Assembly (NCBI GenBank): GCA_049512315.1
Contig: JBEKXF010000002.1
Coordinates: 1-64,000, forward strand
Direction of reading: 5' to 3'
Length of the DNA: 64,000 nt
DNA from: Candidatus Aminicenantales bacterium
Lineage (GTDB): Bacteria > Acidobacteriota > Aminicenantia > Aminicenantales > Saccharicenantaceae
The notes below the pieces were generated by a model. It made no database searches. It saw only the letters and a list, made by a program, of their open reading frames with translations, and was not told the origin of the DNA. The translations under genes and the position numbers were made by a program. Positions 24,179 to 43,680 of this stretch are shown one piece after another. Each line of letters begins with the position of its first letter. The first letter of the stretch is position 1.

Positions 24179-27100
24179 CTAAAGACCGGCCAGCCTCCGC
24201 TTGGCGTCCGTAACCTCGGGCAGGCCCGGGTCGGCGTCCTTCCAGAGGTCGAGGAATTTGCGGTAGTTCGTGATGGCTCGCGTCTTGTCTCCCTGCTGCT
24301 CGGCGATCTTCCCCAGCATGTAGAACGCATTGGCGTAGAGGTCGCCATGCCAAACCCTTCCGATTGTTAGCCGTGTGATTTTTTCACATTCTTTGCAAGA
24401 TTTCTCCAGATCCCCAGACTTGTATAGGGATAGGGCAAGACCGTAAAAGTAGATAGCATGGTCAAACTCACGACCAGGATCGCTTTCGAACCGCAGTCGG
24501 GCGCACGCCCTTCCAAAAAAGTCTAAAGCCTTCTTATGGTTCCCATTTCCAAGCTCTATCAGCCCCAGTATGTATTCAAAGAACCGAAGCTCTTCTGTGT
24601 TGATGCCCGTATCGATCAGAGCTTTCAGCTCCGCGGCGGTCTTTCTTGCCTCATCGAACGATTTCATCTTCGCCTGAATTCTTCCTTTGACGAAAAGGTC
24701 TCTTTTTTGCTGACTTGGTAAATAGGACAGTGCGGATTCACCCGCTGATTTTCGATACTCGGCCGAGAGCTTCAGATGCTGACCAAAAGCCTGATAGGCT
24801 TCTTCATAGCGACCGGCTTTTTCCAGCGCGACTGCCAAATCCACATATGCTCCTGCCTCCTTTTCTTTGTCTCCTTTCGATTTCTCGAGATCCTGTCGGC
24901 ACAGGTTGACGTTCTCATTGAATTTTCCGCGGCTCAGAAGAAGTGCATCATAACCTAGGATCTTCTCCGCGCCGGCGAGATCGTCTTTGGAGAGAAGGGC
25001 CCAACCCATTTGGTATTTCCACCAAACAGGGTCGAGGAGATAGTTTTTTTCCGCCTCGCTAACAGCAAGGTCGAACAGCCTTCGGCATAAGTAGCTAGAA
25101 ACCAACGCAGAGCGAACATAGGAATTATCTTCGACGTCCTGGAGGAACGAACGGCACAGATTCTCTGCTTTTTGATATAACCCTTTCGCCATATAACCGC
25201 CCGCCAGGCCTCCGACGATGAAGGCGTTGCTTCGGTTCTGATTCGCGACTTCGTAGTGTTGAATAGACTTGTCAATGTCTCCGGCCAAATCATATGTGAA
25301 AGCCAAAGCGGAATGGCCCACGGCGTCGCTGGGGTAGGCCTTCACCAGTTTTTCTAAGATCTCGATGGCCTTCGCATAATCCTCGTCGTTACTAAAGACC
25401 TGAGCTTCGATGAGCAGCCGCTCGTTTTCAGGAAGCCGCGTGCTCAGCTCGAGAGCTTTCTTGAAGTATTTCCGGGCTTCAGCGGCATGCCCGAGATTAT
25501 TGTGTACCATCGCAAGTGATCGATAAGCCATGGCGAATTCGGGGTCTATTTCCACCGCTTTCTCCATGTAGGCGATGGCCTGTTCATATTCCAGTTTGTA
25601 AATGTGTCTCCTGCCTTCAATGTAATACTTGAGGGCTTCGGGAGAAGAGGTGGTGATCTTACCCGCCTCTTTTTCGACGTCGCTGGCAATCTGAGTCGCA
25701 GTGAGGTTAAGCCCTTCCTTGACCTGCCGCACTAACTCATCAACCTTGGCGATAATGTCCTTCTCATCACGGGCTTCAAGCCGGAGGTCTGTCGATCTCT
25801 CGGCAGTGCCCGGCTTCTGTAGGCCGGCGGTGATGATGAAGCCTTCGCCGGCCTTGATGAAGCTCCCTCTCAGGACATGGCTGGCCCGGGTCTGGGCGGC
25901 GATCTTTTCGATATCTTCCGAGGAATATTTTCTGGCGTCTGTAAGGCCGAGTTTCTTGAGGGTTGTGTAGATTTCCTCACTGGTAACGACTCGTCGGATG
26001 TACTTTGACTGGGAGATGTCCGTGTTGATCAGCTCTGCCAGCACTTCACGTAAATAATCCAGCTTTGAATCTCCAGACTTGTTCTCAAAGTAAAGGATAG
26101 CGAGCGTCGGCTGACCTGACGCGGTAGGAGACGGAGCAGCCTTATTCGAAGGGATAATGCGCCAGAGGAGGAGGCCGACTGCAACCAGAGCGAGTAGCGC
26201 AATGGCTGGGATGATCAATTTCTTCGCCGAAAAAGTAACCGTGATCTGCCTGGAGGTCATCGGTCTGCGTTTCGCGACGATGCGCTCCGTCGTCGGCAAT
26301 CCCTGCTCGACCTGCTCCAGGTCCGCGTGCAGGTCCTCTGCCGTCTGATAACGCTTCCCCTTGTCCTTCTCCAGGCACTTCAAGATCACTCTGCTCAGGC
26401 CCTCAGGAATCTGGGTGTTGAGCTCCCGTGGATTCCGCGGCCGCTCGCTCTTGTGCTTGACGGCGATAGTTAACGGCGTATCGCCCTCGAACGGGACCCG
26501 GCCAGTGACCATCTCGAAAAGGATGACCCCGAGCGAGTAGATATCCGATCTCTGATCGACCTCCTTGCCCTCGACCTGCTCCGGGCTCATATATTCCGGT
26601 GTGCCGATCATCACCCCGGCGCCCGTGATGCTCTTGGCCGAAAGCGACCGGGCGATCCCGAAGTCCATGATCCGGGCGTTCCCGTCCTCGTCCACCATGA
26701 TGTTCTGGGGCTTCAAATCCCGATGGGCGATCCCGAGGTGATGGGCCTCCGCCAGGCCTTCGCAGATCTGCTTCGCGATCGAGACCGCCCTGCCGGTTCC
26801 TAGCTGGCCGGTCTTACGGATGAGTTTCTTCAAGTCCTCGCCCGGAACATACTCCATCGTGATGAAGGTCGTGCCCTCGGCCTTGCCCAGGTCGAACATC
26901 CGGCAGACATTCCTATGGCTGATTTTCCGGGCGAGCTTTAGCTCATTTGAGAAGCGTTCGACCGTCTCCTTGTCCAGGGCGATCTCAGGCCGCAGGAGCT
27001 TGAGGGCGACCTTCTCTTTGATGTCAGTGTCTTGGACTTTGTAGACCCGGCCCATGCCGCCGTGGCCGAGCTCCTCGATCACTTGGTACCGGCCGGCGAA

Positions 27101-27256
27101 CGTGGAGCCTGTGGTGAGCTCACGAACCGGCGTTTGAAGGGTCTCTGTCATGACCGGAGGATGTTCCTGGGACGGAGGGAGTTGCGTGCCGCACTCCCCG
27201 CAGAACTTCACGGTATCAGGATTATCGGCATGACAGGTCGGGCACTTGTTGGCCAC
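24179..27256 (-). CDS. Ser/Thr protein kinase with zinc ribbon, TM segment and TPR repeats
   Basis: CPTC..FCGECG; GHGGMG, VALK, HRDLKPQN, DFG, GTPEYMSPE; C-terminal TPRs. Confidence 0.95.
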   Translation of the reverse strand: MANKCPTCHADNPDTVKFCGECGTQLPPSQEHPPVMTETLQTPVRELTTGSTFAGRYQVIEELGHGGMGRVYKVQDTDIKEKVALKLLRPEIALDKETVERFSNELKLARKISHRNVCRMFDLGKAEGTTFITMEYVPGEDLKKLIRKTGQLGTGRAVSIAKQICEGLAEAHHLGIAHRDLKPQNIMVDEDGNARIMDFGIARSLSAKSITGAGVMIGTPEYMSPEQVEGKEVDQRSDIYSLGVILFEMVTGRVPFEGDTPLTIAVKHKSERPRNPRELNTQIPEGLSRVILKCLEKDKGKRYQTAEDLHADLEQVEQGLPTTERIVAKRRPMTSRQITVTFSAKKLIIPAIALLALVAVGLLLWRIIPSNKAAPSPTASGQPTLAILYFENKSGDSKLDYLREVLAELINTDISQSKYIRRVVTSEEIYTTLKKLGLTDARKYSSEDIEKIAAQTRASHVLRGSFIKAGEGFIITAGLQKPGTAERSTDLRLEARDEKDIIAKVDELVRQVKEGLNLTATQIASDVEKEAGKITTSSPEALKYYIEGRRHIYKLEYEQAIAYMEKAVEIDPEFAMAYRSLAMVHNNLGHAAEARKYFKKALELSTRLPENERLLIEAQVFSNDEDYAKAIEILEKLVKAYPSDAVGHSALAFTYDLAGDIDKSIQHYEVANQNRSNAFIVGGLAGGYMAKGLYQKAENLCRSFLQDVEDNSYVRSALVSSYLCRRLFDLAVSEAEKNYLLDPVWWKYQMGWALLSKDDLAGAEKILGYDALLLSRGKFNENVNLCRQDLEKSKGDKEKEAGAYVDLAVALEKAGRYEEAYQAFGQHLKLSAEYRKSAGESALSYLPSQQKRDLFVKGRIQAKMKSFDEARKTAAELKALIDTGINTEELRFFEYILGLIELGNGNHKKALDFFGRACARLRFESDPGREFDHAIYFYGLALSLYKSGDLEKSCKECEKITRLTIGRVWHGDLYANAFYMLGKIAEQQGDKTRAITNYRKFLDLWKDADPGLPEVTDAKRRLAGL

Positions 27257-27317
27257 TGCTGGCCCCCTTTTCTATGCAGGCCTCAGATTAACAGAGGGAT
27301 GAGCGGGAAGTCAAACT

Positions 27318-27339
27318 TGGGCGCGCCCAGAGGGATTCG
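27318..27339 (-). other. tRNA-Arg-like 3'-end remnant (possible left att)
   Basis: tgggcgcgcccagagggattcg resembles tggcgtgcctaagaggattcg at 43669 in the same orientation (15/21). Confidence 0.45.
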
Positions 27340-27487
27340 CCCCTCCCCGAAACCCCGATAGCCTACGATCCCAGTAGGATTAGTGTTTTCCGCATTCCGC
27401 CCGTTATCTGCGGCTTGCTGACGGACATTCTTGTGTGCTTTCCGGGACCGGTCTGAGATCGTCTACATCGTCCTCTGGAAGGCTGGC

Positions 27488-27679
27488 CGGCTGCCCAAAA
27501 GCAAGCAGGCCGCCCGCGTCGCCGCCAAGCATCCGGTGACCCTCGACAAGCGCTTCATCCACGCCAGGCCGGAGCGGAAGGAGGAGGACTAGGTCCGCAC
27601 AGCCCCATTGGTCATTAAGCCCCGCCTGGAAGGCGAGGCTTTTCTTATGTTCTTAGTTCGATTTATTGAGGGCAGGTCA
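27488..27679 (+). repeat. Dispersed repeat copy 1 (peptide remnant + terminator + IS3-like end)
   Basis: Encodes RLPKSKQAARVAAKHPVTLDKRFIHARPERKEED*; hairpin 27617-27643; ends gagggcaggtca. Confidence 0.9.
27617..27643 (+). terminator. Intrinsic terminator in repeat copy 1
   Basis: aagccccgcc-tggaa-ggcgaggctttt. Confidence 0.65.
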
Positions 27680-27808
27680 GAACGACTTGGCCAGATTCCA
27701 CGTCCTTGTGCCAAAGAAGAGAGACGTGTGAATCCCCGCCAAGCTCTCTAGCCAGGGAACTAACCTTGCTCGGTTGCGGATTGTAAAGCGGATTGCTATG
27801 ATTAATTC

Positions 27809-28435
27809 ATGCATCTATGGCGCAAGAGACATATGCGCACCCTGCTGTTGGTCACAGCCGTGCTGGTCGTCCTGCCAAGTTATTTGCGGCTCTATTCACT
27901 CACAGGGGGTTCGGCAGCCCCGACAATTCTACGTGGCGACAGATTTGTTGTGAATCGCGCGGCGTACGATTTGCGAGTACCATATTCCCGCATTACGTTA
28001 TTCCGTACGCGTTCGTTGCGGCGTGGAGACATAGTCCAGGCCCAGCTCCCCGCCCGCATCGGAATTGACATCAAGCGTGTTCTTGGGTTACCTGGCGAAA
28101 CGATTGAAGTGCGTGAGAATCGTGTCATTGTCAATGGCCGGCCCCTACCTGTTCAGTCGCTTGACAACATCGATTTCGGCTGGGTGCCAACGGCATACCG
28201 CATAGGATCTACGGTCGTGATGGAGGACGGCCACTGGGCCGCCTACACGCCCGGAAAGAACCAGTATCGGAGTTCCCCGCCTGTCCAGCTTGGTCCCGGA
28301 GAGTACTTTCTGATGGGTGACAACCGGGATAATAGCTTTGATTCACGTGCATTTGGTCCAGTATCTAGGGAACGGATTTTCGGCAAAGTGATTGCGGTGA
28401 TCCCGACCCGCCAACGTGTTGCGAAGCGCGATTAA
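27809..28435 (+). CDS. lepB: Signal peptidase I
   Basis: GGSAAPT..GD (Ser), IKRVLGLPGE (Lys), GDNRDNSFDSR. Confidence 0.9.
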   Translation: MHLWRKRHMRTLLLVTAVLVVLPSYLRLYSLTGGSAAPTILRGDRFVVNRAAYDLRVPYSRITLFRTRSLRRGDIVQAQLPARIGIDIKRVLGLPGETIEVRENRVIVNGRPLPVQSLDNIDFGWVPTAYRIGSTVVMEDGHWAAYTPGKNQYRSSPPVQLGPGEYFLMGDNRDNSFDSRAFGPVSRERIFGKVIAVIPTRQRVAKRD

Positions 28436-28450
28436 AGAACTTGCCGGGAG

Positions 28451-28584
28451 TGACTTTCCCCGCTCAACGTATCACCTCTGAAGTGAGATCTTCGAGCACC
28501 CGCGCCGAGCGCGTCGCGGCCAAGCACCCCGTGACGCTGGACAAGCGCTTCGTCCACCCCAGGCCGGAGCGGAAGGGAAAGTGA
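28451..28584 (+). repeat. Dispersed repeat copy 2 (IS3-like end + peptide remnant)
   Basis: tgactttccccgctcaacgtatcacc... then AERVAAKHPVTLDKRFVHPRPERKGK*. Confidence 0.9.
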
Positions 28585-28658
28585 ACAGGCCGGACGCCAG
28601 AAGCGCCGTGCCGATTGGGGCGACGTTATTTAAGAAATGACCGCTTGATAGGGTCACT

Positions 28659-29678
28659 TCATCCGTCGCGGTCGAACCATCCCTTCGATAATAGGCATAC
28701 AACGCAGAACTTACCCCCCGGCGTCACCTCCGTTAAATCGTCCTTGTACGTGATGGTTCCGCACCCATCGCAGATCCTGTTGTCAATGCCGATAAGCTCA
28801 GCGTCAGTGAGAGCGAGATCCGCAATGATCCGGGGGTTCGTCCGGCAGTACAAGCAGAGGAAGAGACCCGGCCTTACCTCGGTCAATTCTCCCTCCCAAT
28901 ACAATTTTTCACACCCGTCGCACTCCGCGATCTCGCTCGGGTTCCGCTCTTCGCGGATGATCGGGGCGTCGACTCGCTGCTCTGCCTCCGTCGGCGGGTC
29001 AACGGGCTGCTCCTTGGGGTCGAACGTGCGCTCTGGCGCTGCCTCCTTTTGCTCCTTAGCTTCGAGCGCACGCTCCGATGCTGGATCTTTGCCTGCCTGG
29101 CCCATCCCATTACGCTGCGTCCCAGGCTGGCTCTCAGTTCTCTTGTTGGTGAAAATGACCTCACCCCTGGTTGATTCGTTTTGGCTTGTGACAATCGCGC
29201 CAGGGACCCTTTCCCTGAATATTCGAGGCACGCCGTCTCTCACCCTATTGAGTCTCATCTGGCGGTTGCGCCGATCGACTTCCGATTCGCTCTCCCCAGT
29301 CGCCCAAAGCCCGTCCATGACTTTCCGCAGTTCAAATCCGATGGTATCAACAAGCTCAACACTGCGCCCGTCAACCAGCAGAACGTTTGAACCGAATATT
29401 TTGGCGCACGGCAGATGGGCCAACTCCCAAAGCGTCTGCAGCTCCTCTACTGATTGGCCCTTGGTGACCCGGCCAAGGATCTCCGGATCTTTATAACGGT
29501 CAAAACTGATGTAAAGGGAAAAACCCTTCTCGCCGTTCTCGAATGTGAATGTCACTCCCCCCGGACATCCGTAGCGGCGCCTGAAGGGTCCGGCCTCGAG
29601 GTCTTTTTCGACGAGCTCGTCATCATCAAAAAGTACGTACAGAAGGTTCTTTGACCTATGCAGGGAGATTTCCATCAT
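28659..29678 (-). CDS. Hypothetical protein with two C-terminal zinc-ribbon repeats
   Basis: CDGCEKLYWEGELTEVRPGLFLCLYC and CDGCGTITYKDDLTEVTPGGKFCVVC. Confidence 0.65.
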   Translation of the reverse strand: MMEISLHRSKNLLYVLFDDDELVEKDLEAGPFRRRYGCPGGVTFTFENGEKGFSLYISFDRYKDPEILGRVTKGQSVEELQTLWELAHLPCAKIFGSNVLLVDGRSVELVDTIGFELRKVMDGLWATGESESEVDRRNRQMRLNRVRDGVPRIFRERVPGAIVTSQNESTRGEVIFTNKRTESQPGTQRNGMGQAGKDPASERALEAKEQKEAAPERTFDPKEQPVDPPTEAEQRVDAPIIREERNPSEIAECDGCEKLYWEGELTEVRPGLFLCLYCRTNPRIIADLALTDAELIGIDNRICDGCGTITYKDDLTEVTPGGKFCVVCLLSKGWFDRDG

Positions 29679-29839
29679 CGCACCGCCTTTCTCTGTTCCC
29701 GAGGTCATTTAAGCACAGATTCCCAAGGGCGCGTCAACTTATTTCGCCGCATTCAATTCCATCTCCCCGGAAAGCTCCCTTTGCATTCTGGAATTGCCCA
29801 AGTGAAACTGATTCCATTCCCGCCCCAGAGAGGTTGTCC

Positions 29840-30562
29840 TCAATTGCGTCCATTCCAAGTGGAAGCGTGTGCTCGGAACTTGGCGAAAGTCTTATTGCCG
29901 CAACAGACGTCGCCGAAGAAATCGGCCCGCATCTTTTCAAGGGCCCTCTCTCCCGCGTCATTGGCGGCCGACCCGGGGTGCAGCACCCTGGCCGTCTCGT
30001 TCCTTCGTTCCTGGTCTATCATCTTGTTGACCTTCTTCAAGTCGCCCGCAAAATCCGGGGTTTTAATAGGGGTGCTCAGATGTTCCGCTATCCATCTCAA
30101 CTCCTCAGATTCTTTCTCATACCCTATCCATTGCCAACTGCAGAGATTGGCCCATTTTTCCCTGGCGATGGGGAGCATGTATTTTTCGGTCGCGCCTGTC
30201 TCTTTCTTCGCGCTTTCCGGCAGGGACTTCCACTCGGGCCACTCCCTCGTGTCGACATAGAAAAAGGTCCCGCGCGAGTCTGTGGAAAGGATGAACCAGT
30301 TGACGCAACAGGCGTACGTGAGTTTCGCACACCACGCTGCCCGGTTCTTTCTCTTGGTCTCGACGTATCTTGCCCAGCCCGCCTTCACTATGGGCTTATG
30401 CTTTGAGCAGTACCCGGCACGGCTTCCCCAATACAACCGGCCGCAGTCGTGAAACCGACAATTATTGAGCGACTTGCCTCCGGACGAGAAGTATCTGTTG
30501 CAGATTCCTACCAACCAAAGCCCGACTTTGCCGTGCTTCTTCCTACTGTAGATCATGCTCAT
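29840..30562 (-). CDS. Cys/Trp-rich hypothetical protein
   Basis: 240-aa ORF co-oriented between two unknown genes; CRFHDC..YCSKH. Confidence 0.55.
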   Translation of the reverse strand: MSMIYSRKKHGKVGLWLVGICNRYFSSGGKSLNNCRFHDCGRLYWGSRAGYCSKHKPIVKAGWARYVETKRKNRAAWCAKLTYACCVNWFILSTDSRGTFFYVDTREWPEWKSLPESAKKETGATEKYMLPIAREKWANLCSWQWIGYEKESEELRWIAEHLSTPIKTPDFAGDLKKVNKMIDQERRNETARVLHPGSAANDAGERALEKMRADFFGDVCCGNKTFAKFRAHASTWNGRN

Positions 30563-30651
30563 GTCAGGACGCTTTCACCGCATTCGCGACCGCGGGCACG
30601 GGGCAGGCGATGACGGCCGGGGACTCGTTGCTTCCAGAACAACGGCTGTTT

Positions 30652-32166
30652 TCATTGGCGCTCTTTATCACGGGATTTCGCCTCCTTCTCCGAATAGACG
30701 GAATTCGTTGTCTCCACCAGGTCCCTGGGAATAATGGCCCAAAGTTTCCATTCGCTATCGGCCAGAACTTCCCAGCCTTCAGAAACCGGCATGCCGGTGA
30801 TGCTCTCTCCTTTGCGATAACGTTTTCCGTTCTCGGCGACGATGTCGACCTTCGGCTTCAGCCGCCAGCCCGTGTAAACCAATTTTAAGACGCGACTCAT
30901 CGGCAGCTCATCGGGCCACTTCGCGCACGTAACCCTTATCTCCGGCGGGGTCGCATTTACGGCCCGGCTACTGTTGAACCAGCGAGCACGGGTCCCCGCT
31001 TTAACCATGCTGTCCGGAATGATCATCGAAGGCGTGACGTCGACCTTGACTATGTTGCTGTTATCGTCGCCGGTTCTTTCGCGGGTGCGCCAAGTGTCTT
31101 CTATAAACTCCGAATACTCGGCTCCGACCTTCCATCCCGTGTCGACGCGACTGCCGACAATGAACTTCCCGGCCGGAATGAACTTTCCATGTCTGAGGGG
31201 AACATTGACCTTACACTCCAGCCATTGCAAGTCATCGAGTTTACGGAACGGTTCTTCAACTTCCACCGCGCTGTCCGGGATAAGGAGCGAGTGTTGGTCG
31301 CCCACAAGGTCGATTATCCAGCCTTCCGACACCGGAAAACCCAGACCGCGTGTTCCAGCTCCATAGCCAAGACCGGGCGAAAATTCAATGGCTGTTTTGA
31401 GCGTTATCCAACATGCGGTCTCCAATCGACCGGAAGTCTCTTCCCGCTTTGGGATCTTTTTCACGGGCAGTCCCAAGGGCTTTATCGCCTCGACCACTTC
31501 AAGGGGGACAATGGTGGAATAGCCATCATCAAACTCTACACGCCAGCCAACCCCACGCCCATCCCAGAGAATAGCCCACAAACTCGGGCTGGGCCCCGGA
31601 CGACCTAGAACAACAGTCCCGGCTGGGACAACCATTCCCGCTTTAATCGTGATGTCGTACTTGAACTTCAGCCATCGCACGCCATCGTCCTTTGGCTTCT
31701 TCTCGACGGTCACATGTTGCTCCTTAAGTTCACGAGTCATGACACCCTTCTCAACTGCTTCATGGATCACGGGGTTGAAGGAAACAGGACCTGCATTTGG
31801 GTACTGGCTCAGTATCCGGGATCGAATTTCCAGAAATTCTTCCCGGGTCCCCTTGAAAAGGTAGCAAGTCCCTTTACAGTCGGGACACTCTTTCCACGTT
31901 CGTCCCTCATCAACATCCAAGACGCCGCGACCCTTACAGGTTCGGCAAGTCTCTGTTCGACGGCCGATCAACTCGTGGACCAACTGGCAGTGCGGGCCCA
32001 TGGGCTGAAAGCCCGTCCGCCTTAGGTAAGCACTCATCCATTCGATCGTGCCCAGATGCCACCCATCGTACTCACCAGGTTGTCCACAATTCCTACAATT
32101 GGGAGTCCCCATGCCAACGACATGGGGAGAACACTTACAACGCGGACGCCACATTTTCCCGGGCAT
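30652..32166 (-). CDS. Hypothetical protein: N-terminal zinc fingers plus four beta-rich repeats
   Basis: AAGGAGG RBS; CRNC, CRTCKGRG..CPDCKG; repeats of W..K..I....G....G....G.P...GW. Confidence 0.75.
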   Translation of the reverse strand: MPGKMWRPRCKCSPHVVGMGTPNCRNCGQPGEYDGWHLGTIEWMSAYLRRTGFQPMGPHCQLVHELIGRRTETCRTCKGRGVLDVDEGRTWKECPDCKGTCYLFKGTREEFLEIRSRILSQYPNAGPVSFNPVIHEAVEKGVMTRELKEQHVTVEKKPKDDGVRWLKFKYDITIKAGMVVPAGTVVLGRPGPSPSLWAILWDGRGVGWRVEFDDGYSTIVPLEVVEAIKPLGLPVKKIPKREETSGRLETACWITLKTAIEFSPGLGYGAGTRGLGFPVSEGWIIDLVGDQHSLLIPDSAVEVEEPFRKLDDLQWLECKVNVPLRHGKFIPAGKFIVGSRVDTGWKVGAEYSEFIEDTWRTRERTGDDNSNIVKVDVTPSMIIPDSMVKAGTRARWFNSSRAVNATPPEIRVTCAKWPDELPMSRVLKLVYTGWRLKPKVDIVAENGKRYRKGESITGMPVSEGWEVLADSEWKLWAIIPRDLVETTNSVYSEKEAKSRDKERQ

Positions 32167-32237
32167 GACTGTAACCTCCTTATCAGCGTCAGGAGGCCGG
32201 GTATCTGAGGGGAGCGGAAAGCGGATTGGCGGGCAAC

Positions 32238-32271
32238 AAAAAACCCGCTTCTCCTGGCTCAGGAGAGCGGG
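32238..32271 (-). terminator. Riboswitch expression-platform terminator
   Basis: Minus strand cccgctctcctg-agc-caggagaagcggg-tttttt. Confidence 0.85.
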
Positions 32272-32281
32272 TCATATCGCC

Positions 32282-32393
32282 CGGACACTTTGTTGCCGCT
32301 TTCTCAGCGACCGCATCCTCGCTCCGTGCGAGTGGCACCTTGGGTGTCCGTCCCAGGTTGCCGGGCCCTGCATTAGAGGGCCTCTCCTGATGC
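32282..32393 (-). ncRNA. SAM-I/IV-type riboswitch
   Basis: P1 gcatc/gatgc, AGGAGA, P2 ggccct/agggcc, CGGCAACC..AGGTGCC P3, P4 ctcgc/gcgag, P5 gtcgct/agcggc, pseudoknot cggacac/gtgtccg. Confidence 0.88.
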
Positions 32394-32400
32394 CGAATAT

Positions 32401-32429
32401 AATATAAGCTCTGGGACCCGGAAAATCAA
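32401..32429 (-). promoter_or_regulatory. Sigma70-type promoter of the riboswitch leader
   Basis: TTGATT-17 bp-TATATT, 7 nt upstream of P1. Confidence 0.7.
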
Positions 32430-32504
32430 GCGTTTCTACAGTATTCCTCTGGAAAACGAACAGACAAAGCTATTCCATTACGGTTTTTTCGAAGGCCCTC
32501 GTGT

Positions 32505-32576
32505 TCACATTCGGCACTCCGACGCCTTACATAACTTGCAAATGAGCTGTTCCGGAGTGAACCATACCCTGCCCAT
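32505..32576 (-). pseudogene. IS3-family OrfA N-terminal remnant
   Basis: MGRVWFTPEQLICKL resembles IS3 OrfA starts (..FTPEQIIxKL). Confidence 0.5.
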
Positions 32577-32640
32577 CGAGACTCCCCCCCGGCTGACCGG
32601 GCAACTGCTGGGAGTTGTTATGCGGCTTGGAAGAGTTTGC

Positions 32641-32809
32641 CGCCCGCCCAAGAACGAGCGCGTCGCCGCCAAGCACCCCGCGACGCTGGATCGGCGGTTC
32701 ATCCACCCCGGGCCGGAGAAGAGGGAGGAGTAGGGCGGCCGGTCTATAAGCCCCGTTGGAAGGCGGGGCTTTTTTATATTCTCAGTTCGATTAATTCGGG
32801 GACAGGTCT
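32641..32809 (+). repeat. Dispersed repeat copy 3 (peptide remnant + terminator + IS3-like end)
   Basis: RPPKNERVAAKHPATLDRRFIHPGPEKREE*; hairpin 32748-32775; ends ggggacaggtct. Confidence 0.9.
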
Positions 32810-32830
32810 CTCGGGCACGAATGGAGATGA

Positions 32831-34594
32831 TTATAAAGTGCTCTTGTGCGGAGGAGTCCTATAATCAAGGCCCACCATTAGCGGTTCCGGTTCGTCTTCA
32901 TACTGGAGTCGGTTTCGCCGGTAGAGAAAATGGATTTGATAGGCTCTGATCCCGATAACCGCCACTAGAACGCCCGCATAAAAATATATGAAGCCTAGAG
33001 GCGACCGAAGGAGTGCCAGTTCTAGACGGCTCATGACGTTGATATAAGCAATGAACCCTAACAGATAAAAGAGCCAGAAGAATTGGATTCTTTCTTTCCC
33101 TGGAAGATAGGAACATGTAAAGGGGATCTTAAGAGAGCGGATGAGGAGGATTTCCATAACGAGGATCGATACGGCTAATCCGTAAAGAGAATGATAGAAC
33201 GCCGTTTGGGGATCCCAAAGCACTGTGTAGACGGCAAAGATAAGAATGAACAGGGGACAAAGTCTCAAAAGCAGGATAGCTTTCCTGAGGCCAGTAAAGT
33301 AGGCCAGGATCTGAGGCCTCTCCGTCAAACGAAAGACCCAATTTGCCTCAAGGGAAACTGGCACATTCATAACGGATCTCAGGCCTAAAAGAAGAGCAAA
33401 GGACAGGACCAAGGGAATGGAAACCAAAGTTGCATTGATACTGAGAAGGTTGCCCTTTTCGACGGTTCGCATCGTTATAAGAAAGGGCACAAGGGCCACG
33501 CCGCAAGCAAAGTATGTGGCCAAGCGCATTCTATGGAACACGCTACTTCTCAGTGTCTTTCTGTAGAAGTGAAAAATTGCCCGTTGAGTAGAGTTTCTTA
33601 GCAGAATGCTGTTAAAAGCAGTTTCAAGGGACCAGCGGATCTTTCGGAGTCGCAAGCTATGGCCTGCAAGACTTCTCCGGAGCGAACGCCCATAGCTAAG
33701 CCCCATCGTCAAGATGAATACGAAACCCATTACGGCCAAGCCAAATAGCGCATACTTATAATACCCATGAAAAGGCAGCCGGGGGCTTCCCAAAGCTGTC
33801 TCGTATAGGTCGGTGAACCAGAAGGGAGGAAAATAGTTGAAGAAGTGGCCCATTATTGAAGAATCCGATGCGAGCTGTTTTGTGGAGATCAAGTTTTCAA
33901 GGCCGTAAACGAGAATCCTCAAATAGATTAGGATGAGAAATAATTGGAGGATCACAAAGAGGGAACGCAGATATGTCGATACTTTCGTGAAAATCGTAGA
34001 CCCCAATAGGCACTGGAGCAGACCGAAGAGGACGACATAAAAGAAAAACCCAAAAAAACAGGCCGAGAACATTATCAAAAAATGGATGATGGCGTGCCCG
34101 AAAAAGAAGAGCACGCTGGGAGATCGCCACCGAGGGAGGAGCAGGATGAAGAAAGGAGAGGAAAGCAGGTTCAAACCTAAACCGAACAGGCTGGCAAAGA
34201 GCAGCAAACTGGCGAATTTCGCTGACAGGATTGTCCTCGTTCTCAAGGGAAGTGGGTTGAGGTTAGAAGAGTCGCGCCGATCCAGAAATATGAAGTCCCA
34301 CTCGAGGATAGCCATAAAACCCATAATCAGCATGAAGAACGTAATGATGATCATTTTTTCTAACCAGGATTGGCCAGTGTCGCGAGTAAAGTCATACTTC
34401 CCCAGGAACACGTAAGCGACGAGACCAGAAAAAACCGCCAGTGTCGCGAGTATCCCGATCACGCGTTCCTTCATCTGGTCTTCGAAGTCCACGAGGTCAT
34501 TTCTGAAGAGCCGAAGAAAGAAGTGTCGGGTAAGGATCCGGAATTGTCGGGCTTCAAATGAAGCTGCATGCAAGGCGTTCCGGATGGAAATCAA
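32831..34594 (-). CDS. ABC transporter permease (ABC-2-like)
   Basis: Many TM segments; 6 bp downstream of the ABC ATPase. Confidence 0.8.
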   Translation of the reverse strand: MISIRNALHAASFEARQFRILTRHFFLRLFRNDLVDFEDQMKERVIGILATLAVFSGLVAYVFLGKYDFTRDTGQSWLEKMIIITFFMLIMGFMAILEWDFIFLDRRDSSNLNPLPLRTRTILSAKFASLLLFASLFGLGLNLLSSPFFILLLPRWRSPSVLFFFGHAIIHFLIMFSACFFGFFFYVVLFGLLQCLLGSTIFTKVSTYLRSLFVILQLFLILIYLRILVYGLENLISTKQLASDSSIMGHFFNYFPPFWFTDLYETALGSPRLPFHGYYKYALFGLAVMGFVFILTMGLSYGRSLRRSLAGHSLRLRKIRWSLETAFNSILLRNSTQRAIFHFYRKTLRSSVFHRMRLATYFACGVALVPFLITMRTVEKGNLLSINATLVSIPLVLSFALLLGLRSVMNVPVSLEANWVFRLTERPQILAYFTGLRKAILLLRLCPLFILIFAVYTVLWDPQTAFYHSLYGLAVSILVMEILLIRSLKIPFTCSYLPGKERIQFFWLFYLLGFIAYINVMSRLELALLRSPLGFIYFYAGVLVAVIGIRAYQIHFLYRRNRLQYEDEPEPLMVGLDYRTPPHKSTL

Positions 34595-34600
34595 CTTTCC

Positions 34601-35371
34601 TTAACTCCCCCGTTTAATGGCCTCGGCAATGCCCCGGGCCGTTATCTCCGGATTCTCACTGACCACGAGGCGGCTGAAGATCTCTTCCAGGGAGGGGAGG
34701 TTCATCAGGTGGCTAAGGTTCTCAACAGAATCATCAGCTGCGATGATTCCTTTATCGATAATAATAACCCTTGAGCAGACTTTTTCGACGACCTCCAGGA
34801 CGTGGGACGAGTAAATGATTATTTTGCCTTCCTGGGCGAGCAGAGCGAGAAGGTCTTTGACGACGAGAGCCGTGGTAACGTCCAAACCGGATAAAGGTTC
34901 ATCCATCAAAATGACACGAGGATCATGAAGGAGGGCTGAGGCTAAAAGGACCTTCTGAACCATTCCCTTGGAGTAGGATGCCATGGCCATGTCCATCTCT
35001 GAGGACAAACCGAGGAGTTGCATGAGTTCAGTAACCTTGGTTTGTAGAAGGAGATCCGAAAGCCCTCGGAGGCGGCCAACCATGAACAGATAATCCCAGG
35101 CACTCATGTGCTTGTAAACGTCGGATTGCTCAGGGACATATCCGACGGTACTTTTATAAGCAAACATGTTTTGCCTGATCGGGTGACCTTGGTATAGGAT
35201 TTCACCTTCAGTTGGTTCGAGCAACCCAGCCATCATTTTAATCGTTGTGCTCTTCCCGGCTCCGTTCGGACCCAGATACCCGGTAATTTCACCCGGCTTT
35301 AGGACAAAACTCACGTCCCGGACAGCCGGTATGGCCGAATACTTCTTGGTCACTCCCCTGAGTTCAAGCAT
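34601..35371 (-). CDS. ABC transporter ATP-binding protein
   Basis: GPNGAGKST, YSKGM, ILMDEP, SSH. Confidence 0.95.
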   Translation of the reverse strand: MLELRGVTKKYSAIPAVRDVSFVLKPGEITGYLGPNGAGKSTTIKMMAGLLEPTEGEILYQGHPIRQNMFAYKSTVGYVPEQSDVYKHMSAWDYLFMVGRLRGLSDLLLQTKVTELMQLLGLSSEMDMAMASYSKGMVQKVLLASALLHDPRVILMDEPLSGLDVTTALVVKDLLALLAQEGKIIIYSSHVLEVVEKVCSRVIIIDKGIIAADDSVENLSHLMNLPSLEEIFSRLVVSENPEITARGIAEAIKRGS

Positions 35372-35388
35372 GGTTCCCTCGCGTTCAT

Positions 35389-35478
35389 TGACCCCCCCCT
35401 TGAATCTTAAGCGGCTCAGACTTCATGTAGTCGCGGCGCTCGACAAGCGCTTCATCCACCCCAGGCCGGAGCGGAAAA
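35389..35478 (+). repeat. Dispersed repeat copy 4 (truncated)
   Basis: tgacccccccc start; core encodes LDKRFIHPRPERK. Confidence 0.8.
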
Positions 35479-35507
35479 ATGCCATTCAGGAAAAGAAAAC
35501 CAATTCT

Positions 35508-36002
35508 CTATTTTTTAACCCCATACTTACTTTCGAACTCTTTGAGTAGCTTAGCCCGAGCTTTAATGCTGTCAGGGTAAAGGTAGAGGTTCATGATCTC
35601 ATTAGTCACGGCGCCAGCGACTTCGCCGATGGCCCCCCTATCAGCAATATTGATCCGCAACCCATTAACATCTTCGACGAATCCCACAAACTCTTTTTCA
35701 AAGACCGGTGACAGGACTCCCTTCTTGCCCGGCATGACAAACAACCTGAGCACCAACAACACCCGATGGTATCTCTTGAAAAAAAGCGGATCTATTTGGT
35801 TCTGATCTCTTTCTTTAATGGCCTCCGCGTAGAGGGCTTCAAGTCCGGCCGCGTATTCGGCTTCACTGACAGTCGGTCGTTCAGCCGCATTCTTGAACAT
35901 CAAGTTCAGCTTATCAATCAGGACCTTTCCGTCTTTGTCCTGAGCGGCGAGACCAAGGCTAAACATTAGTAACAAGCCAAAAACAAATATTCTTTTTGCC
36001 AT
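35508..36002 (-). CDS. Secreted hypothetical protein
   Basis: Signal peptide; last gene of the sigma/anti-sigma operon. Confidence 0.75.
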   Translation of the reverse strand: MAKRIFVFGLLLMFSLGLAAQDKDGKVLIDKLNLMFKNAAERPTVSEAEYAAGLEALYAEAIKERDQNQIDPLFFKRYHRVLLVLRLFVMPGKKGVLSPVFEKEFVGFVEDVNGLRINIADRGAIGEVAGAVTNEIMNLYLYPDSIKARAKLLKEFESKYGVKK

Positions 36003-36003
36003 A

Positions 36004-36567
36004 TTAGACCTCCTGGTATTTTCTTGAATATTCTAAAAGCCATTTTTCCAGAGTCCTGTCAAAAAAGAGAATGCGGATGGTTTCTTTTAGACCCAGCGGA
36101 GTGTAGTTCTTTTCCGGCTGAGCAATATTTCCCTTCTCATTCTCCGGCTCCGCAGGGGGAACCGCGGATTCGAATATTCGTTCATACGTTGAACCAAATC
36201 CTCCAGGACGTTGGCCCGGAGAGGAGTAATGGAGTACGTGGCTTTGCCCTTCAGAAATCGATTGAATTGTCGGCAAGCTCATGAGGTATTGGGTGATAAA
36301 TCTGCTCTGCCCGAGGGCCTGGTTTGGCGAAGAAGACGGCTTCCTGAAAAGAAAAATAGTGATTATAACGAGCAATAATAAACCAATAAAGTAGGCAGGC
36401 TTTAGGTACCAAGGGAACGATCTTATCCGTTTCGTAGCACTAGGAGCGACTGCCTTCAGAAGACGTTCCTTTAAGGCCGATTCAGGGGAGTTCTTGTCAG
36501 CGCTCTCCAACTCCTCACGTATAAGCCGGTTAATGATCTCTTCCTCACTTCCCATTTTCTCTCCCAT
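36004..36567 (-). CDS. Single-TM protein, putative anti-sigma factor
   Basis: One TM helix; overlaps the ECF sigma 3' end. Confidence 0.6.
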   Translation of the reverse strand: MGEKMGSEEEIINRLIREELESADKNSPESALKERLLKAVAPSATKRIRSFPWYLKPAYFIGLLLLVIITIFLFRKPSSSPNQALGQSRFITQYLMSLPTIQSISEGQSHVLHYSSPGQRPGGFGSTYERIFESAVPPAEPENEKGNIAQPEKNYTPLGLKETIRILFFDRTLEKWLLEYSRKYQEV

Positions 36568-37108
36568 AGCCGTTCTCCTTAAGCTCCTCCATAACCGAGC
36601 GGCGTGCCCGGCTCAGTCGTGACATCACTGTCCCAATCTTAATTCCAAGAGTTTCAGATATTTCCTCATAGGACAACTGCCCATATTCCCGCATAACAAA
36701 CACGTCGCGGAATCTAGTGGGCAAACTCTGCACAGCTCCTTTCAGGACCAGGCCAAGTTCGCCGCGGATTATTGACATTTCGGGGGTATCTCGTTCAACC
36801 ATGGGTAACTGATTATCGTAGAACAACCTTCTATCCTGGCGCTTCTTCCGTAGATGGTTAAGGCAGACATTCCGGGCTATTCTTAAGAGCCAAGGCCTAG
36901 CGGAATTCTGGACTCTTACTGAGCCGATATCTTGCCAAGCTTTCAAATAGACGTCCTGATAAAGTTCCTCAGCATCCGAGAGGTTGATCGAATATCCTAG
37001 GCAGATATGAAAGACAAGGGCTGAATTGGTCAGCAGTTCTTCGAAAAGTTCTCTATCCGGGGAGGCGGCCCTTTCATGCGTGGTATACATCTTCATATAT
37101 ACAGACAC
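36545..37108 (-). CDS. ECF sigma-70 factor
   Basis: DAEELYQDVYLKAW, WLLRIARN, LSYEEISETLGIKIGTVMSRLSRAR. Confidence 0.92.
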   Translation of the reverse strand: MSVYMKMYTTHERAASPDRELFEELLTNSALVFHICLGYSINLSDAEELYQDVYLKAWQDIGSVRVQNSARPWLLRIARNVCLNHLRKKRQDRRLFYDNQLPMVERDTPEMSIIRGELGLVLKGAVQSLPTRFRDVFVMREYGQLSYEEISETLGIKIGTVMSRLSRARRSVMEELKENGYGRENGK

Positions 37109-37175
37109 ATCAAGAGCTTGATTATTCCAAAAGGCACGTTAATTTCTGAACTCGGTAATGCCCAACCCCGGCTGT

Positions 37176-37360
37176 TGACCTACCCCCGCTCAATTTATCA
37201 CCCCTGGATTGAGATTTTCAAGCAAGTACGCCGAGCGCCTCGCTGCGAAACACCCCATGACGCTGGACAAGCGCTTCATCCACCCGAGGCAGGAGCGGAA
37301 GGAGGACTAGGCAAGTCGGGACCGTCGGACGCCAAGCCCCATTGTTTAGGTGGGGCTTTT
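37176..37360 (+). repeat. Dispersed repeat copy 5 (IS3-like end + peptide remnant + terminator)
   Basis: tgacctacccccgctcaatttatcacc..; SKYAERLAAKHPMTLDKRFIHPRQERKED*; hairpin 37334-37360. Confidence 0.9.
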
Positions 37361-37479
37361 ATCATATCTTCCCAGTTTTTCCTCATTTTATTTCGGATCC
37401 AGACTTTGTTTGGGGGGCTTTGTATTGATGTTGCGCTAATTTGTAATGTACAATTCAGTTAGATGAGGGGGATGACCGC

Positions 37480-38106
37480 ATGGCACTAGAACAAACACAG
37501 GCTCAAGTACCGAAGGTTCAGCATATTTGGTGTAGCGTTACGATCAGTAAGAAGATGGAAGATGTTTTCACTGGCTTTATTAACGGCCAAGCGCAGGTGG
37601 GTACAAATATTTCTGAATATGTAGTTTATCTTGCCACACTTGGAGGCAGTCCATTTTCTGCTATCAGTCTCTATAATTTTGTTAAGGCTATCCCACAAAA
37701 GACTACCGTTTATAACATGGGTAACGTTTCTTCAGCTGGCGTCCCCTTCTTTTTGAGTTTTCAAACGAGAATTGGCGTTCCGGACTGTAGTTTTATGGTT
37801 CATCAGACAACACTTGCACGCACAGCGCTGCCTGATAACTTTAACGTCTTTGATTTAGATACGACAAAGGCCAATTTATCAGCGACAGATGATAATACTC
37901 AAAAAATAATTCTGAAAGAAACGACCCCTCGTGCTTCGAAACCTCTTACAGCCGCAATAATTCGGAAGGCCTTTTTAAAATCAACAACGTACCATGCCGC
38001 CGAAGCACAAGCGCATGGTTTTATTGATAAAATAGAACTACCCAAACTGCCAGATACTGGCCTTATATATATTACCGATCAATATCTTGCTACATTGCCT
38101 GGCTAA
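37480..38106 (+). CDS. ClpP/crotonase-like serine protease
   Basis: LATLGGS, GNVSSAG (Ser), FMVH (His), AEAQAHGFID. Confidence 0.8.
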   Translation: MALEQTQAQVPKVQHIWCSVTISKKMEDVFTGFINGQAQVGTNISEYVVYLATLGGSPFSAISLYNFVKAIPQKTTVYNMGNVSSAGVPFFLSFQTRIGVPDCSFMVHQTTLARTALPDNFNVFDLDTTKANLSATDDNTQKIILKETTPRASKPLTAAIIRKAFLKSTTYHAAEAQAHGFIDKIELPKLPDTGLIYITDQYLATLPG

Positions 38107-38236
38107 TGGATAATTATGGCGGTCTGAGCGATGGGGCTTCAGGCCCCCAAAAAACACATCCCAAAGTGGATTCTAACGTCCTTAATAAGGTTCCATCAAA
38201 TGGACGACGAAACCTATTTGCTACACGGATCTTCCG

Positions 38237-39157: not shown

Positions 39158-39311
39158 AGGCAAATCCGAATATTGAACCGAAAAAAAACATTTTGGCGAG
39201 GGCCGAATGCAATATTCGATGAGAGAGAGATGCGTACAACTGTTCGTCAGGACCAAGCTAGGCGACAGAATGGTGGCGCAAGATCCTTAGGAACCAGCCT
39301 TCGTTATTAGC

Positions 39312-40223: not shown

Positions 40224-40605
40224 GCCGTTTAGTATATTCGTGGAAAAATAACAGACTCTTCCCCAGCCTGAATTATCAGGCCTTCATACGCAAATTTTTA
40301 CTCAAAGACTAATTATTTTATATCTCCCGCATAATCGATAAGTTCCTCACCGCCGCTCTTCAAAAATATCGGTGAATCCAATATTTCTGCTGAATTTTCA
40401 GCATTTAGGGTGAGGAACAAAATGAACCAGGTTATGAAGTCTCATAAGGGCATCGGCCAACTCAAGACTAGACCGAGGTACGGCAGGAAGCTCGAACTTG
40501 ACGCTTACCTCACCTGGGCGTTCCCATGACAGCCAAGAGCATTTACGGAATGGCGCGACATGTGCGCCCTCGGGCGACACAAAATCTAAGCTAAGGAGTA
40601 ATGAG

Positions 40606-41986: not shown

Positions 41987-42154
41987 ATGAAAAGGAAGGA
42001 CTTATTCAAGTCGCCGGACCCGAAGGCCGACTACAAGAAACTCATCAACGCCGCTAAGGCGGACCTCGAAGAAGCGATGGAACGGGCAGTCGAGCTCGAC
42101 AATCTCGCTGATCTGGCCAGAGCCCTGGGGAAGGCCGAATGGAGCAAGAAATGA
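41987..42154 (+). CDS. Small hypothetical protein coupled to the recombinase
   Basis: ATGA overlap with the recombinase start at 42151. Confidence 0.5.
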   Translation: MKRKDLFKSPDPKADYKKLINAAKADLEEAMERAVELDNLADLARALGKAEWSKK

Positions 42155-43680
42155 CCGGCGTCATCTGGGTCAGGGTCTCGTCGGTCGAGCAGGCCCGCGG
42201 CTATTCCCCCGACGCCCAACTCAGGGCGCTCAGGGAGGCCGCCAAGCAGAGGTCCATCGACATCGTCAGGGAATTCAAGGTCGCCGAGTCTGCAAAGACC
42301 TCGGAGACGAGGAGGAGGTTCCGCGAGCTGGTCGACTTCATCGGCGAGCACAAGCCCGATTACCTGATCGCCCTAGCCATCGACCGCATAACGCGGAACC
42401 CCGACGACCTCTACGCCATCCACAACCTAATCGACAGGGGCGGCCTCAGCGTTCTACTGGTGAACCAGAACAAAGTCATCAACAGGGACTCCCCTCCCGT
42501 GGACAAGTTCACCTTCATGATGTTCGGGAACATCGCCTACCTCGACAATATGCAGAGGGGTGAGCGGGTGAAAATGGGGATGCTGGAGAAGGCCCGAGGC
42601 GGCGTCTTTCCGTCCCGGGTCCCGGTCGGCTACATGAACGTTCCCGACCCCACGGATCCGTCAAGCAGACGGCCGACGGTCGCTATCGATCCCGCAAGGG
42701 GCCCGCTGATCAGGCTGGCCTTCGAACTCTACGCCCGGGGCGGCCATTCCCTGGCGACCCTCCGCGACGAGCTCAACCGCCGCGGCCTGCGGCAGAGGCC
42801 CACGTCGAAGAACCCGAACGCACCGATAAGCATCTACGGCCTCCAGGTCATCCTCGGCAACCCCTTCTACTACGGCATGGTGAGGTGGGGCAAGCAGGTG
42901 TTCCCGGGCACGCACGAACCGCTGATCTCGGCGGACCTGTTCAACCGGGTCCAGGCCCGCCTCAGGGAGAACTGCAGCTACGCCAAGCCGGCCGCGAAGA
43001 AGCATTTCGCCTTCAAGCCCTTCCTGAGGTGCGGGCACTGCCAGGCCGGTATAACGGCCGAGGAGAAGGAGGGGGCGCACAAGAGCGGCACGTACGTCTA
43101 CTACCACTGCACCCACTCCAAGGACAGGAACTGTCCCCTGGGCATGTTCCGCGAGGAAAAGGTCGACGGGATGTTCGCCGAGGCCCTGGGGAAGCTCTAC
43201 ATCGACGGGGCCATCGCCGGCAAGATCAAGGAGCAGCTGAAATCGGCCCACGGCGAGCAGGAAGGGGCCGACAAGAGGGAGCTGAGGAGGCTCCAGTCGG
43301 AATACACGCGGAAGACGAACCAGCTCGGCCTAATCTACGACGACCGGCTGGACGGCACCATCACGAAGGAGCAGTACAAGGAGAAGCAGGCGGCCCTGGA
43401 GCGGGAGCTGGGGGCGATCCAGGCCGACATCGATAAGCTGGGCAGCGTCAACAGGAAATACAAGGAGGAGGGATCGATCGTCATCGACCTCCTCAGCGGC
43501 TTCAAGGACATCTACCAGGCGGCCGACCTCGAGGGCAAGGCCGCCATCCTCGGCGCGGTCGTCGACAGCGCCAGCCTGAGGGGCGACGACCTCTTCGTTT
43601 CCTGGAAGCAGCCCTTCGACATCCTGTTCACGCTCGGGGAGGGGGAAAGGGTTCTAAGAAAAACAAAATGGCGTGCCTAA
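42151..43680 (+). CDS. Large serine recombinase (integrase)
   Basis: RVSSVEQ (Ser), DRITRN, recombinase domain NPFYYG..HEPLIS, zinc ribbon CGHC..YYHC, coiled coil. Confidence 0.95.
   Translation: MTGVIWVRVSSVEQARGYSPDAQLRALREAAKQRSIDIVREFKVAESAKTSETRRRFRELVDFIGEHKPDYLIALAIDRITRNPDDLYAIHNLIDRGGLSVLLVNQNKVINRDSPPVDKFTFMMFGNIAYLDNMQRGERVKMGMLEKARGGVFPSRVPVGYMNVPDPTDPSSRRPTVAIDPARGPLIRLAFELYARGGHSLATLRDELNRRGLRQRPTSKNPNAPISIYGLQVILGNPFYYGMVRWGKQVFPGTHEPLISADLFNRVQARLRENCSYAKPAAKKHFAFKPFLRCGHCQAGITAEEKEGAHKSGTYVYYHCTHSKDRNCPLGMFREEKVDGMFAEALGKLYIDGAIAGKIKEQLKSAHGEQEGADKRELRRLQSEYTRKTNQLGLIYDDRLDGTITKEQYKEKQAALERELGAIQADIDKLGSVNRKYKEEGSIVIDLLSGFKDIYQAADLEGKAAILGAVVDSASLRGDDLFVSWKQPFDILFTLGEGERVLRKTKWRA

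Follow-up and report, generated by a model that had tools for sequence, protein, structure and literature searches.

Dedicated site-specific recombinases act in several described systems of gene capture, with CcrAB acting for the staphylococcal cassette chromosome (SCC) at rlmH, DsiB for the ssrA islands, and IntI for integron cassettes. In Dehalococcoides, the ssrA gene is followed by tandem islands that each end in a repeat of the ssrA tail, and many of these islands contain a CcrB-like serine integrase, according to the account of the islands given in PMC3146451. Insertion sequences (ISs) provide a further model, in which a translocatable unit of IS26, consisting of the element and one cargo segment, moves and enters next to an existing copy, as described for IS26 in PMC4196232. 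Gene exchange is little understood in the Aminicenantes, which are abundant and uncultured in peat and sediments. This study examined a 64,000-nucleotide stretch of DNA (hereafter the window; contig C2:1-64000) from a Candidatus Aminicenantes genome from peat (G000; 3.55 Mb in 77 contigs), in which five direct repeats alternate with unrelated blocks of cargo genes. An even chance is given here to the reading that these repeats are tail ends displaced from a small mobile gene present in many copies, accumulated by polar tandem accretion through recombination that was most likely homologous.

Repeat units, their parent gene and their IS-derived ends

Both a profile search (nhmmer) and a repeat search recovered five direct copies in the window, all on the plus strand, which bears out the alternation of repeats with unrelated cargo described in the initial annotation. 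The families returned by the repeat search had 77-91% identity. The copies are 66-91% alike in pairwise repeat searches of the window, have repeat lengths of 90-250 nt, and are spaced 995-4149 nt apart, with four matches to a core 20-mer found at three or fewer mismatches compared to 0.02 expected from shuffles. The reading frame common to the copies ends in RFIHPRPERKEE followed by a stop codon, and this shared frame, together with the parent gene located below, upholds the earlier view that the core derives from the 3' end of one gene family. Fragments carry the last 25-55 codons of one gene, and most also carry its intrinsic terminator, which is the sole strong hairpin of the repeat. Terminators consisting of a hairpin and a U-tract were found 3' of copies 1, 3, and 5, where they had been annotated, and not with copies 2 and 4. 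No Rfam family covered the repeats.

Copy 1 (27460..27679; nhmmer match 27444-27665, E 1.4e-49) contains ~44 codons from the end of the gene, followed by a terminator (27617-27644) and a right end closed by an IS407-type inverted-repeat tip (27668-27679). It is preceded on the same strand by the leader/promoter region of the resident small gene (27300..27459), where 86% identity to full-length leaders is followed by a jump to approximately codon 77; ~150 nt of the parent leader are retained and ~260 bp are missing internally. Copy 1 is the resident parent gene with an internal deletion, at a conserved place beside a Ser/Thr kinase gene. Copy 2 (28451..28656; match 28454-28660, E 1.5e-37) contains a decayed IS-derived left module (L1, see below), a gene-tail core extending to 28576, and a degenerate tail, with no clear terminator (hairpin z -0.34). 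Copy 3 (32594..32809; match 32597-32794, E 1.8e-44) carries a tail derived from a diverged paralog (G000:C26:32389-32721) of the small gene, along with a terminator (32748-32771) and a degenerate inverted-repeat tip at its right end. Copy 4 (35389..35477; partial match 35352-35488, E 1.2e-16) is a short remnant containing an inverted-repeat-like start and ~45 nt of the core, and ends before the stop region and terminator. Copy 5 (37176..37387; match over the same positions, E 6.5e-52) comprises L1 (37176-37223), the core, a terminator (37334-37358), and a right tail that has decayed. Its L1 holds, on the minus strand, a sigma-70-like promoter with an extended -10 (37221-37192), which faces a gene for an extracytoplasmic function (ECF) sigma factor.

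The initial annotation had proposed that a parent gene and its copy number be sought elsewhere. Intact parent open reading frames (ORFs) were located in the same genome at C61:4587-4946 (120 aa) and C67:3065-3460 (~130 aa), with other copies in this genome being N-terminal or paralogous pieces. The earlier statement that the window holds no full-length parent gene is correct in that none is intact there, but it overlooked that copy 1 is the parent with a deletion of ~260 bp. A profile search of the genome found 28 copies on 10 of the 77 contigs, with none on C1 or C3-C16, and the copies are thus not randomly dispersed. Matches to the gene or its fragments were found in only 4 of 41 related genomes, namely the genome of the window (25), its congener G003 (15), and the relatives G002 (5) and G009 (1). 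On contig C7 of G003, an intact gene lies beside the ortholog of the kinase gene of the window and downstream of the same terminase-like ORF, followed by five same-strand fragments with unrelated cargo that includes none of the blocks found in the window. A second array in G003 contains 8-9 fragments, all on one strand.

The parent gene encodes a protein of 113-141 aa whose head is rich in Lys and Ala and whose helical body is well conserved. A homolog search identified 61 relatives of 68-181 aa, nearly all unnamed, and no relative of the gene was found in viral contigs. The small protein matched no Pfam family above the cutoff (only a weak match to DUF6115) and no NCBIfam family, and its PHROG matches had E values of 0.01 or worse. 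An AlphaFold model with four helices was mediocre (pLDDT 63.5) and gave no fold match at E 0.001 or better, with Atlas leads (helix-turn-helix, AT-hook) at noise level only; that this is a small DNA-binding protein is only a guess. A relationship to the OrfA protein of IS3 was also considered, and the comparison showed no relation. A hairpin in the leader (27362-27378 in the window; compare G000:C61:4460-4586) is kept in all 22 non-redundant copies examined, and the conserved leader of ~150 nt may act as an RNA regulatory element or bind a protein.

The initial annotation traced the core to the 3' end of a gene family, which accounts for the gene tail but misses the inverted repeats that bound it. 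Units have a 12-nt tip and its complement at their two ends, and these tips are identical to the inverted repeats listed in Table 2 of PMC2877748 for IS407A, which belongs to the IS3 family and generates 4-bp target repeats (PMC2877748). The same 12-nt tip is carried by ISPa32 and by complete IS3-family elements in G009 (1,209 bp, 2 copies) and G002. The left module, L1 (48 nt), aligns over its full length with the right inverted repeat (IRR) of the complete elements in G009 and G002, with a mean column identity of 77%, and the right end of the unit has ~22 nt in common with ends of the left inverted repeat (IRL) type. The widespread short unit (~150-310 nt) is composed of the IRR-derived L1, ~90-170 nt of gene tail, the terminator, and the IRL-derived right end, while the full cassette (~0.75 kb) contains a single ORF of 113-141 aa that belongs to no transposase family. 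Since the left end of the full-length cassette begins with the same tip in four non-redundant copies, the intact gene sits in an inverted-repeat-bounded cassette of ~0.75 kb, a mobile insertion cassette (MIC) as the term is understood in the IS literature. Because the unit is likewise bounded by IS407-type inverted repeats, it is a derivative of a MIC or of a miniature inverted-repeat transposable element (MITE) and not a plain gene fragment. All units bearing L1 have the same junction between L1 and the gene tail, which implies that they arose once and then spread.

Five contig ends of G000 (C66, C43, C31, C6, and C63) carry an identical IS3-family left end of 119-122 nt that includes the start of orfA, which indicates a recently active, multi-copy IS that broke the assembly. 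This collapsed IS makes a transposase available in trans. Approximately 15 solo L1 modules are found elsewhere in the same genome. In the window, a gene of the beta-lactamase family (18386-20203) has as its neighbour a solo IS3-type left-end module (18094-18143), whose inverted-repeat tip is perfect and which includes a TATAAT-like box.

Polarity, cargo exchange and formation of the arrays

Scanning metagenome contigs for an exact pattern gave 74 stretches, kept as 70 loci (L and M_L labels), and the metagenome loci and genome pieces together contained 167 copies in 66 sequences. When sequences sharing at least 1 kb at 97% identity or more were grouped as redundant, these 66 sequences were reduced to 29 groups. 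Forty-four of the 66 sequences contained two or more copies, and all copies lay on one strand in 41 of the 44, with the three exceptions representing one locus; after grouping, 19 of the 20 groups with two or more copies were co-oriented. Ten groups contained a single intact gene together with one or more further copies, and in all 10 the intact gene was the first (upstream) copy, a result with a chance probability of ~1e-4. Upstream of the first intact gene, 0.4-19 kb of sequence was free of copies. The copy order of one merged sequence reads FffffFfff.

The initial annotation had also raised the question of whether relatives carry different cargo between the repeats. Both relatives and sister strains do, and the order of the cargo is not fixed, with cargo clustering showing that the same blocks recur with different neighbours and in different orders across strains. 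The window, L070/L102, and L114 have the 771-bp block containing lepB (27680-28450) in common at 98-100% identity, and the four array contexts compared provide three neighbour contexts with a permuted order. An operon headed by an S-adenosylmethionine (SAM) riboswitch follows lepB in the window, an alpha/beta hydrolase block follows it in L102, and the hydrolase block and the next block lie upstream of lepB instead in L114. Copy 5 and its ClpP-like gene (37176-38107 in the window) are 85% identical to positions 9903-10827 of L102, with unrelated DNA on both sides, and a ~7.5-kb multi-cassette indel between common flanks distinguishes M_L116 from contig C27 of G003. Read-level data consisted of Logan contigs only, from other peat samples, in which the cargo blocks of the window occurred at independent depths. 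One Logan contig from a ~90%-similar population joins 35399 (the start region of the ABC transporter block) to 37190 (copy 5) without the ECF block. Other Logan repeat-to-repeat joints mostly have sides of 21-55 nt, which could come from other copies or organisms, and were not counted as deletions or circles. Cassettes range from 0.3 to 7 kb and mostly contain 1-4 genes. In related arrays, the cargo includes beta-lactamase-family hydrolases (at least 6), S26 peptidases, ECF sigma operons, flavin reductases, ICMT-like and other methyltransferases, aldo-keto reductases, alpha/beta hydrolases, a few IS3 transposase genes, and serine recombinases.

Breakpoints are concentrated at the units. Homology blocks of 95% or greater identity have 59 unique ends, 29 of which are located in or next to units; by a rough estimate from lengths, units and their margins represent ~8% of the sequence. 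These ends are spread over model positions -30 to 263, and the left ends of copies are scattered over model positions 24-148. The spread breakpoints and scattered copy ends favour homologous over site-specific exchange. Differences at the first, second, and third codon positions number 153, 179, and 339 in 58 unique fragment cores, which contain only three in-frame stops, and 24, 20, and 65 in 16 full-length cores. An excess of third-position differences and a scarcity of stops in fragments are expected if tails are exchanged with functional genes. Of 45 left neighbour genes, 32 are on the strand opposite to the unit, as are 54 of 86 right neighbours.

A sequence of steps can be envisaged by which such arrays would form. 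Units would first have come to flank new DNA by transposition in trans, through the IS3-family transposase of the genome. An array would start at a resident copy of the gene, which in the window would be copy 1 beside the Ser/Thr kinase gene. Incoming DNA, consisting of one unit and its cargo, may be a linear piece acquired by uptake or a circle released by looping-out between two direct units, and it would recombine with the resident gene tail or with any fragment, mostly by homologous (RecA-type) recombination within the unit or gene-tail core. Each entry would rebuild the gene with the incoming tail and push the older tail downstream, such that the outcome would be a co-oriented, one-directional array of cassettes. 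Because the cargo mostly reads against the unit, L1 is probably the promoter of the cargo and the hairpin of the unit its terminator, and each cassette would then probably be framed by a promoter and a terminator supplied by units. The initial annotation had proposed an undescribed accretion platform; polar, co-oriented arrays are as expected of serial recombination at a gene tail, but the claim that the platform is undescribed is not established. Tandem accretion at the 3' end of a gene is of a known kind.

Several observations weigh against polar accretion by homologous recombination as set out above. Copies that are only 66-91% alike are a poor substrate for RecA, and neither a circle nor an abutted tip-to-tip junction was found as a recombination intermediate in the 125 loci and 4 genomes checked. 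Each lepB comparison shows, on one side, an abrupt drop from 98-100% to 70-90% identity precisely at the inverted-repeat tip. Crossing-over inside units does not predict such tip-exact breaks, which suggest an extra tip-precise step such as transposase-mediated replacement or targeted insertion beside an end; copy-out-paste-in elements are reported to join the ends of distant copies, in accounts of such elements in PMC9333248 and PMC3299598. Strict polarity is contradicted by the M_L116 array, which begins with a fragment though 9 kb of upstream sequence is present, and by the merged sequence M_L089, in which an intact gene lies distal, 11.6 kb past the last of six fragments. Because many of the metagenome contigs represent the same populations assembled again, the counts lack independence, and it was for this reason that sequences were grouped. 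Finally, none of the 13 complete units has matching 3-4 bp flanks, so the earlier transposition step also stays hypothetical. At the ends of the cargo, matching triplets were found in only 1 of 9 distinct blocks. A search by synteny for empty sites in congeners obtained none, the relatives being too diverged (62-89% amino-acid identity of flanking genes) or without the locus.

There are several potential alternatives to accretion by homologous recombination. A dedicated site-specific recombinase, either the large serine recombinase encoded in the window or another enzyme, may insert and excise unit-bounded cassettes at the gene-tail site, a reading that is considered doubtful and for which the serine recombinase is the candidate as main rival enzyme. 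Polar, co-oriented arrays with the intact gene first are a signature of site-specific tandem accretion as described for the islands in PMC3146451, and the 513-aa serine recombinase is located distal to the array in the window on the same strand, with homologs (48-69% amino-acid identity) placed likewise in L067/L089, G003:C27, and L100. In addition, right ends of copies cluster just past the stop codon (model positions 152-160, ~17 of 111 copies). However, the breakpoints of near-identical blocks spread over the whole unit and the left ends of copies are scattered, and 2-8 kb separate the recombinase gene from the closest repeat. This gene is in no case at a repeat boundary, and in L089 it is inside a cargo stretch. 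The array on G003:C7 has no serine recombinase in the 20 kb fetched, and no tyrosine integrase was found among the 182 ORFs scanned for families in and around arrays (28 in the window, with 69 and 85 in related arrays). Moreover, serine recombinases need no long identity, so they would leave the shared core of 90-170 nt unexplained. No recombinase specific to these repeat sites was found.

It is unlikely that independent transposition was the main process, with MITEs or MICs inserted one by one by an IS3-family transposase into the intergenic DNA of a gene-poor, tolerant region, the cargo representing local chromosome, and the orientation set by insertion bias or by selection for the carried promoter and terminator. 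Such insertions would agree with the IS407-type tips and the IRR- and IRL-derived ends, the multi-copy IS3-family IS in the genome, the solo L1 modules elsewhere, the sharp tip-exact homology breaks around lepB, and the non-random strand of neighbouring genes. They would nevertheless leave unexplained the first position of the intact gene in 10 of 10 groups, the co-orientation of 19 of 20, the coding signature of the fragments, and the recurrence of cargo in other orders and contexts. The absence of target duplications from all 13 complete units is also at odds with the 4-bp repeats reported for IS407A in PMC2877748, and no empty site was present in 61 flank pairs, all of which were module expansions or repeats. 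Assembly chimerism, in which short-read contigs were joined at a shared repeat and the array is not a real molecule, is highly improbable, for although many of the 77 contigs end at or near these repeats or an IS and Logan contigs from an independent sample end wherever a repeat occurs, a 16,060-bp metagenome contig (possibly from the same sample) is 100% identical to 28129-44188, the same architecture is found inside 150-464 kb contigs of another metagenome-assembled genome, and dozens of contigs from other samples are consistent in strand and order.

Accretion at the gene tail could also form part of a broader picture, which is put forward tentatively and as a whole: a portable, integron-like platform for gene capture that operates without a dedicated integrase and uses the gene tail as its landing pad. 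The mobile cassette might land anywhere in an Aminicenantes genome, after which unit-tagged blocks would accumulate in one direction. IS-derived modules would give each block a promoter and a terminator, and blocks would be traded between co-existing populations. It is possible in this picture that the small protein or the IS3 transposase joins the exchange at the tips, which would explain the tip-precise breaks.

Cargo blocks and neighbouring genes in the window

Family searches confirmed the cargo that had been annotated, namely lepB, a riboswitch operon, an ABC transporter, an ECF sigma operon, and a ClpP-like gene. The first block (27680..28450, plus strand) contains the signal peptidase I gene lepB (27809-28435; Pfam and NCBIfam) and an upstream spacer. 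The second block (28659..32450, minus strand) is headed by a SAM-I/IV riboswitch (32279-32398, minus strand; 55.9 bits) with a promoter-like site (32429-32401, minus strand) and contains three ORFs without a Pfam or NCBIfam family (30652-32166, 29840-30562, and 28659-29708), which encode 504, 240, and 349 aa and include several Cys-X2-Cys pairs. Relatives of the first of these ORFs were found in 2 of 25 other genomes of the family searched, over the first ~130 residues only. The third block (32831..35371, minus strand) consists of a permease-like ORF (32831-34594) and an ABC ATPase gene (34601-35371), whose orthologs in relatives have 35-42% identity and a patchy distribution. The fourth block (35508..37108, minus strand) contains the ECF sigma factor gene (36545-37108) and two downstream ORFs without a family, while the fifth is represented by the ClpP-like gene (37480..38106, plus strand) 3' of copy 5, which accompanies copy 5 in other strains. 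The ClpP-like gene lies in a region (37400-40400) that also includes a DUF4238 gene and ORFs without a family. This region has a GC content of 37-45% compared to 50-60% around it and was probably acquired recently.

The large serine recombinase gene (42139..43680, plus strand; 513 aa; Pfam Resolvase, Recombinase, and Zn_ribbon_recom) is distal to the array and is a candidate player in array formation. A search for a remnant beyond this gene gave chance-level matches of 8-13 nt only. A tRNA 3' fragment (43672-43732, minus strand; Rfam 31.5 bits, no ARAGORN call) overlaps the stop codon of the recombinase gene and looks like the attachment-site remnant of an integrative element; no intact tRNA matching the fragment was found on the expected side. 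A complete tRNA-Met (44067-44143, minus strand) lies 330 nt past the fragment. At the other end of the array, a Ser/Thr kinase-TPR gene (24179-27256) adjoins copy 1, and genes of this kind flank arrays at two loci of G000 (the window and C26:39180-41711, which corresponds to L005:14180-16711) as well as at the orthologous G003 locus, an association that may be coincidental. Upstream of the kinase gene, the region at 14048-23132, with a Swt1-like HEPN ORF and an ORF resembling a terminase large subunit (21522-23132), is syntenic with G003:C7 and is therefore older than the array.

Comparison with known systems

By their ends, size, and copy number, the units belong to the MITE/MIC kind, although target duplications are absent from them. 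They resemble the MITEs and MICs of the IS407 group (IS3 family) in being short, multi-copy, and without a transposase, in having inverted repeats that match a resident IS family, and in having a full form that contains a passenger gene, with short forms that are internal-deletion derivatives. In contrast to these elements, no target duplications or empty sites were found here, and the copies are co-oriented downstream of an intact gene. In addition, their interior is a gene tail with a coding signature, and the blocks of genes between copies move.

The arrays are similar to tandem islands at gene 3' ends (ssrA, SCC at rlmH, and cis-mobilizable elements (CIMEs)) in that an intact target gene comes first and is followed by direct repeats of its 3' end, with strain-specific cargo between the repeats, many islands lacking their own integrase, and a CcrB-like serine recombinase in the region. 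However, the repeat is 90-250 nt with IS-derived ends as compared to ~20 nt in the islands, and the cassettes here are small, the crossovers scattered, and no integration module lies next to the repeats. Unlike in those islands, the target gene here is itself mobile and multi-copy, such that one genome holds many arrays. Regions interspersed with IS26 likewise contain directly oriented copies that alternate with unrelated cargo, with internal copies lacking target duplications, as described for IS26 in PMC4196232. IS26, however, encodes its own IS6-family transposase that catalyses a targeted reaction, whereas the repeat described here has no intact ORF beyond the gene tail, has IS3/IS407-type ends, and forms arrays that are polar relative to a gene.

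Integrons share with these loci one-directional arrays, small accessory cassettes that are mostly single operons, a recurring element of ~100-200 nt, and content that varies by strain. In contrast, the repeat here is a gene tail with a terminator, and the cargo mostly reads against the repeat and seems to have its own promoter. Neither IntI nor a Phage_integrase match was found among the 182 ORFs of the window and related arrays, a set that did not extend to a whole-genome scan for IntI. The loci likewise have neither attI nor a hairpin of the attC type. The initial annotation had seen no attC or CRISPR features, and no inverted repeat of at least 30 nt was found in the 25-40 kb part of the window, although no CRISPR-specific tool was run; the conserved part of the repeat is an ORF with third-position variation. 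CRISPR repeats are ~25-40 nt, near-identical, and regularly spaced at ~30-40 nt, compared to repeats of 90-250 nt that are 66-91% alike and spaced 995-4149 nt apart here. The array is neither an integron nor a CRISPR locus.

The arrays hold strain-variable accessory genes in a modular, reshuffled form, including those for beta-lactamase-family serine hydrolases, signal peptidases, ECF sigma operons, reductases, methyltransferases, and transporters, and the gene-tail repeat provides a practical marker for flexible gene pools in metagenomes of this phylum. No description of such arrays was found in the literature on Aminicenantes insertion sequences and on the inverted-repeat motif, subscription journals not being covered by the search. 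The combination of a mobile, multi-copy target gene that seeds many polar, small-cassette arrays, repeats of 90-250 nt, and IS-derived promoter and terminator modules appears to be undescribed in the literature searched. If the reading of displaced gene tails and polar accretion is correct, the mobile gene would act as a movable attachment site, so that arrays could be seeded at many loci of one genome, and these loci would join, in a combination for which no description was found, the features of MITEs, IS26-type units, and gene-tail tandem islands.

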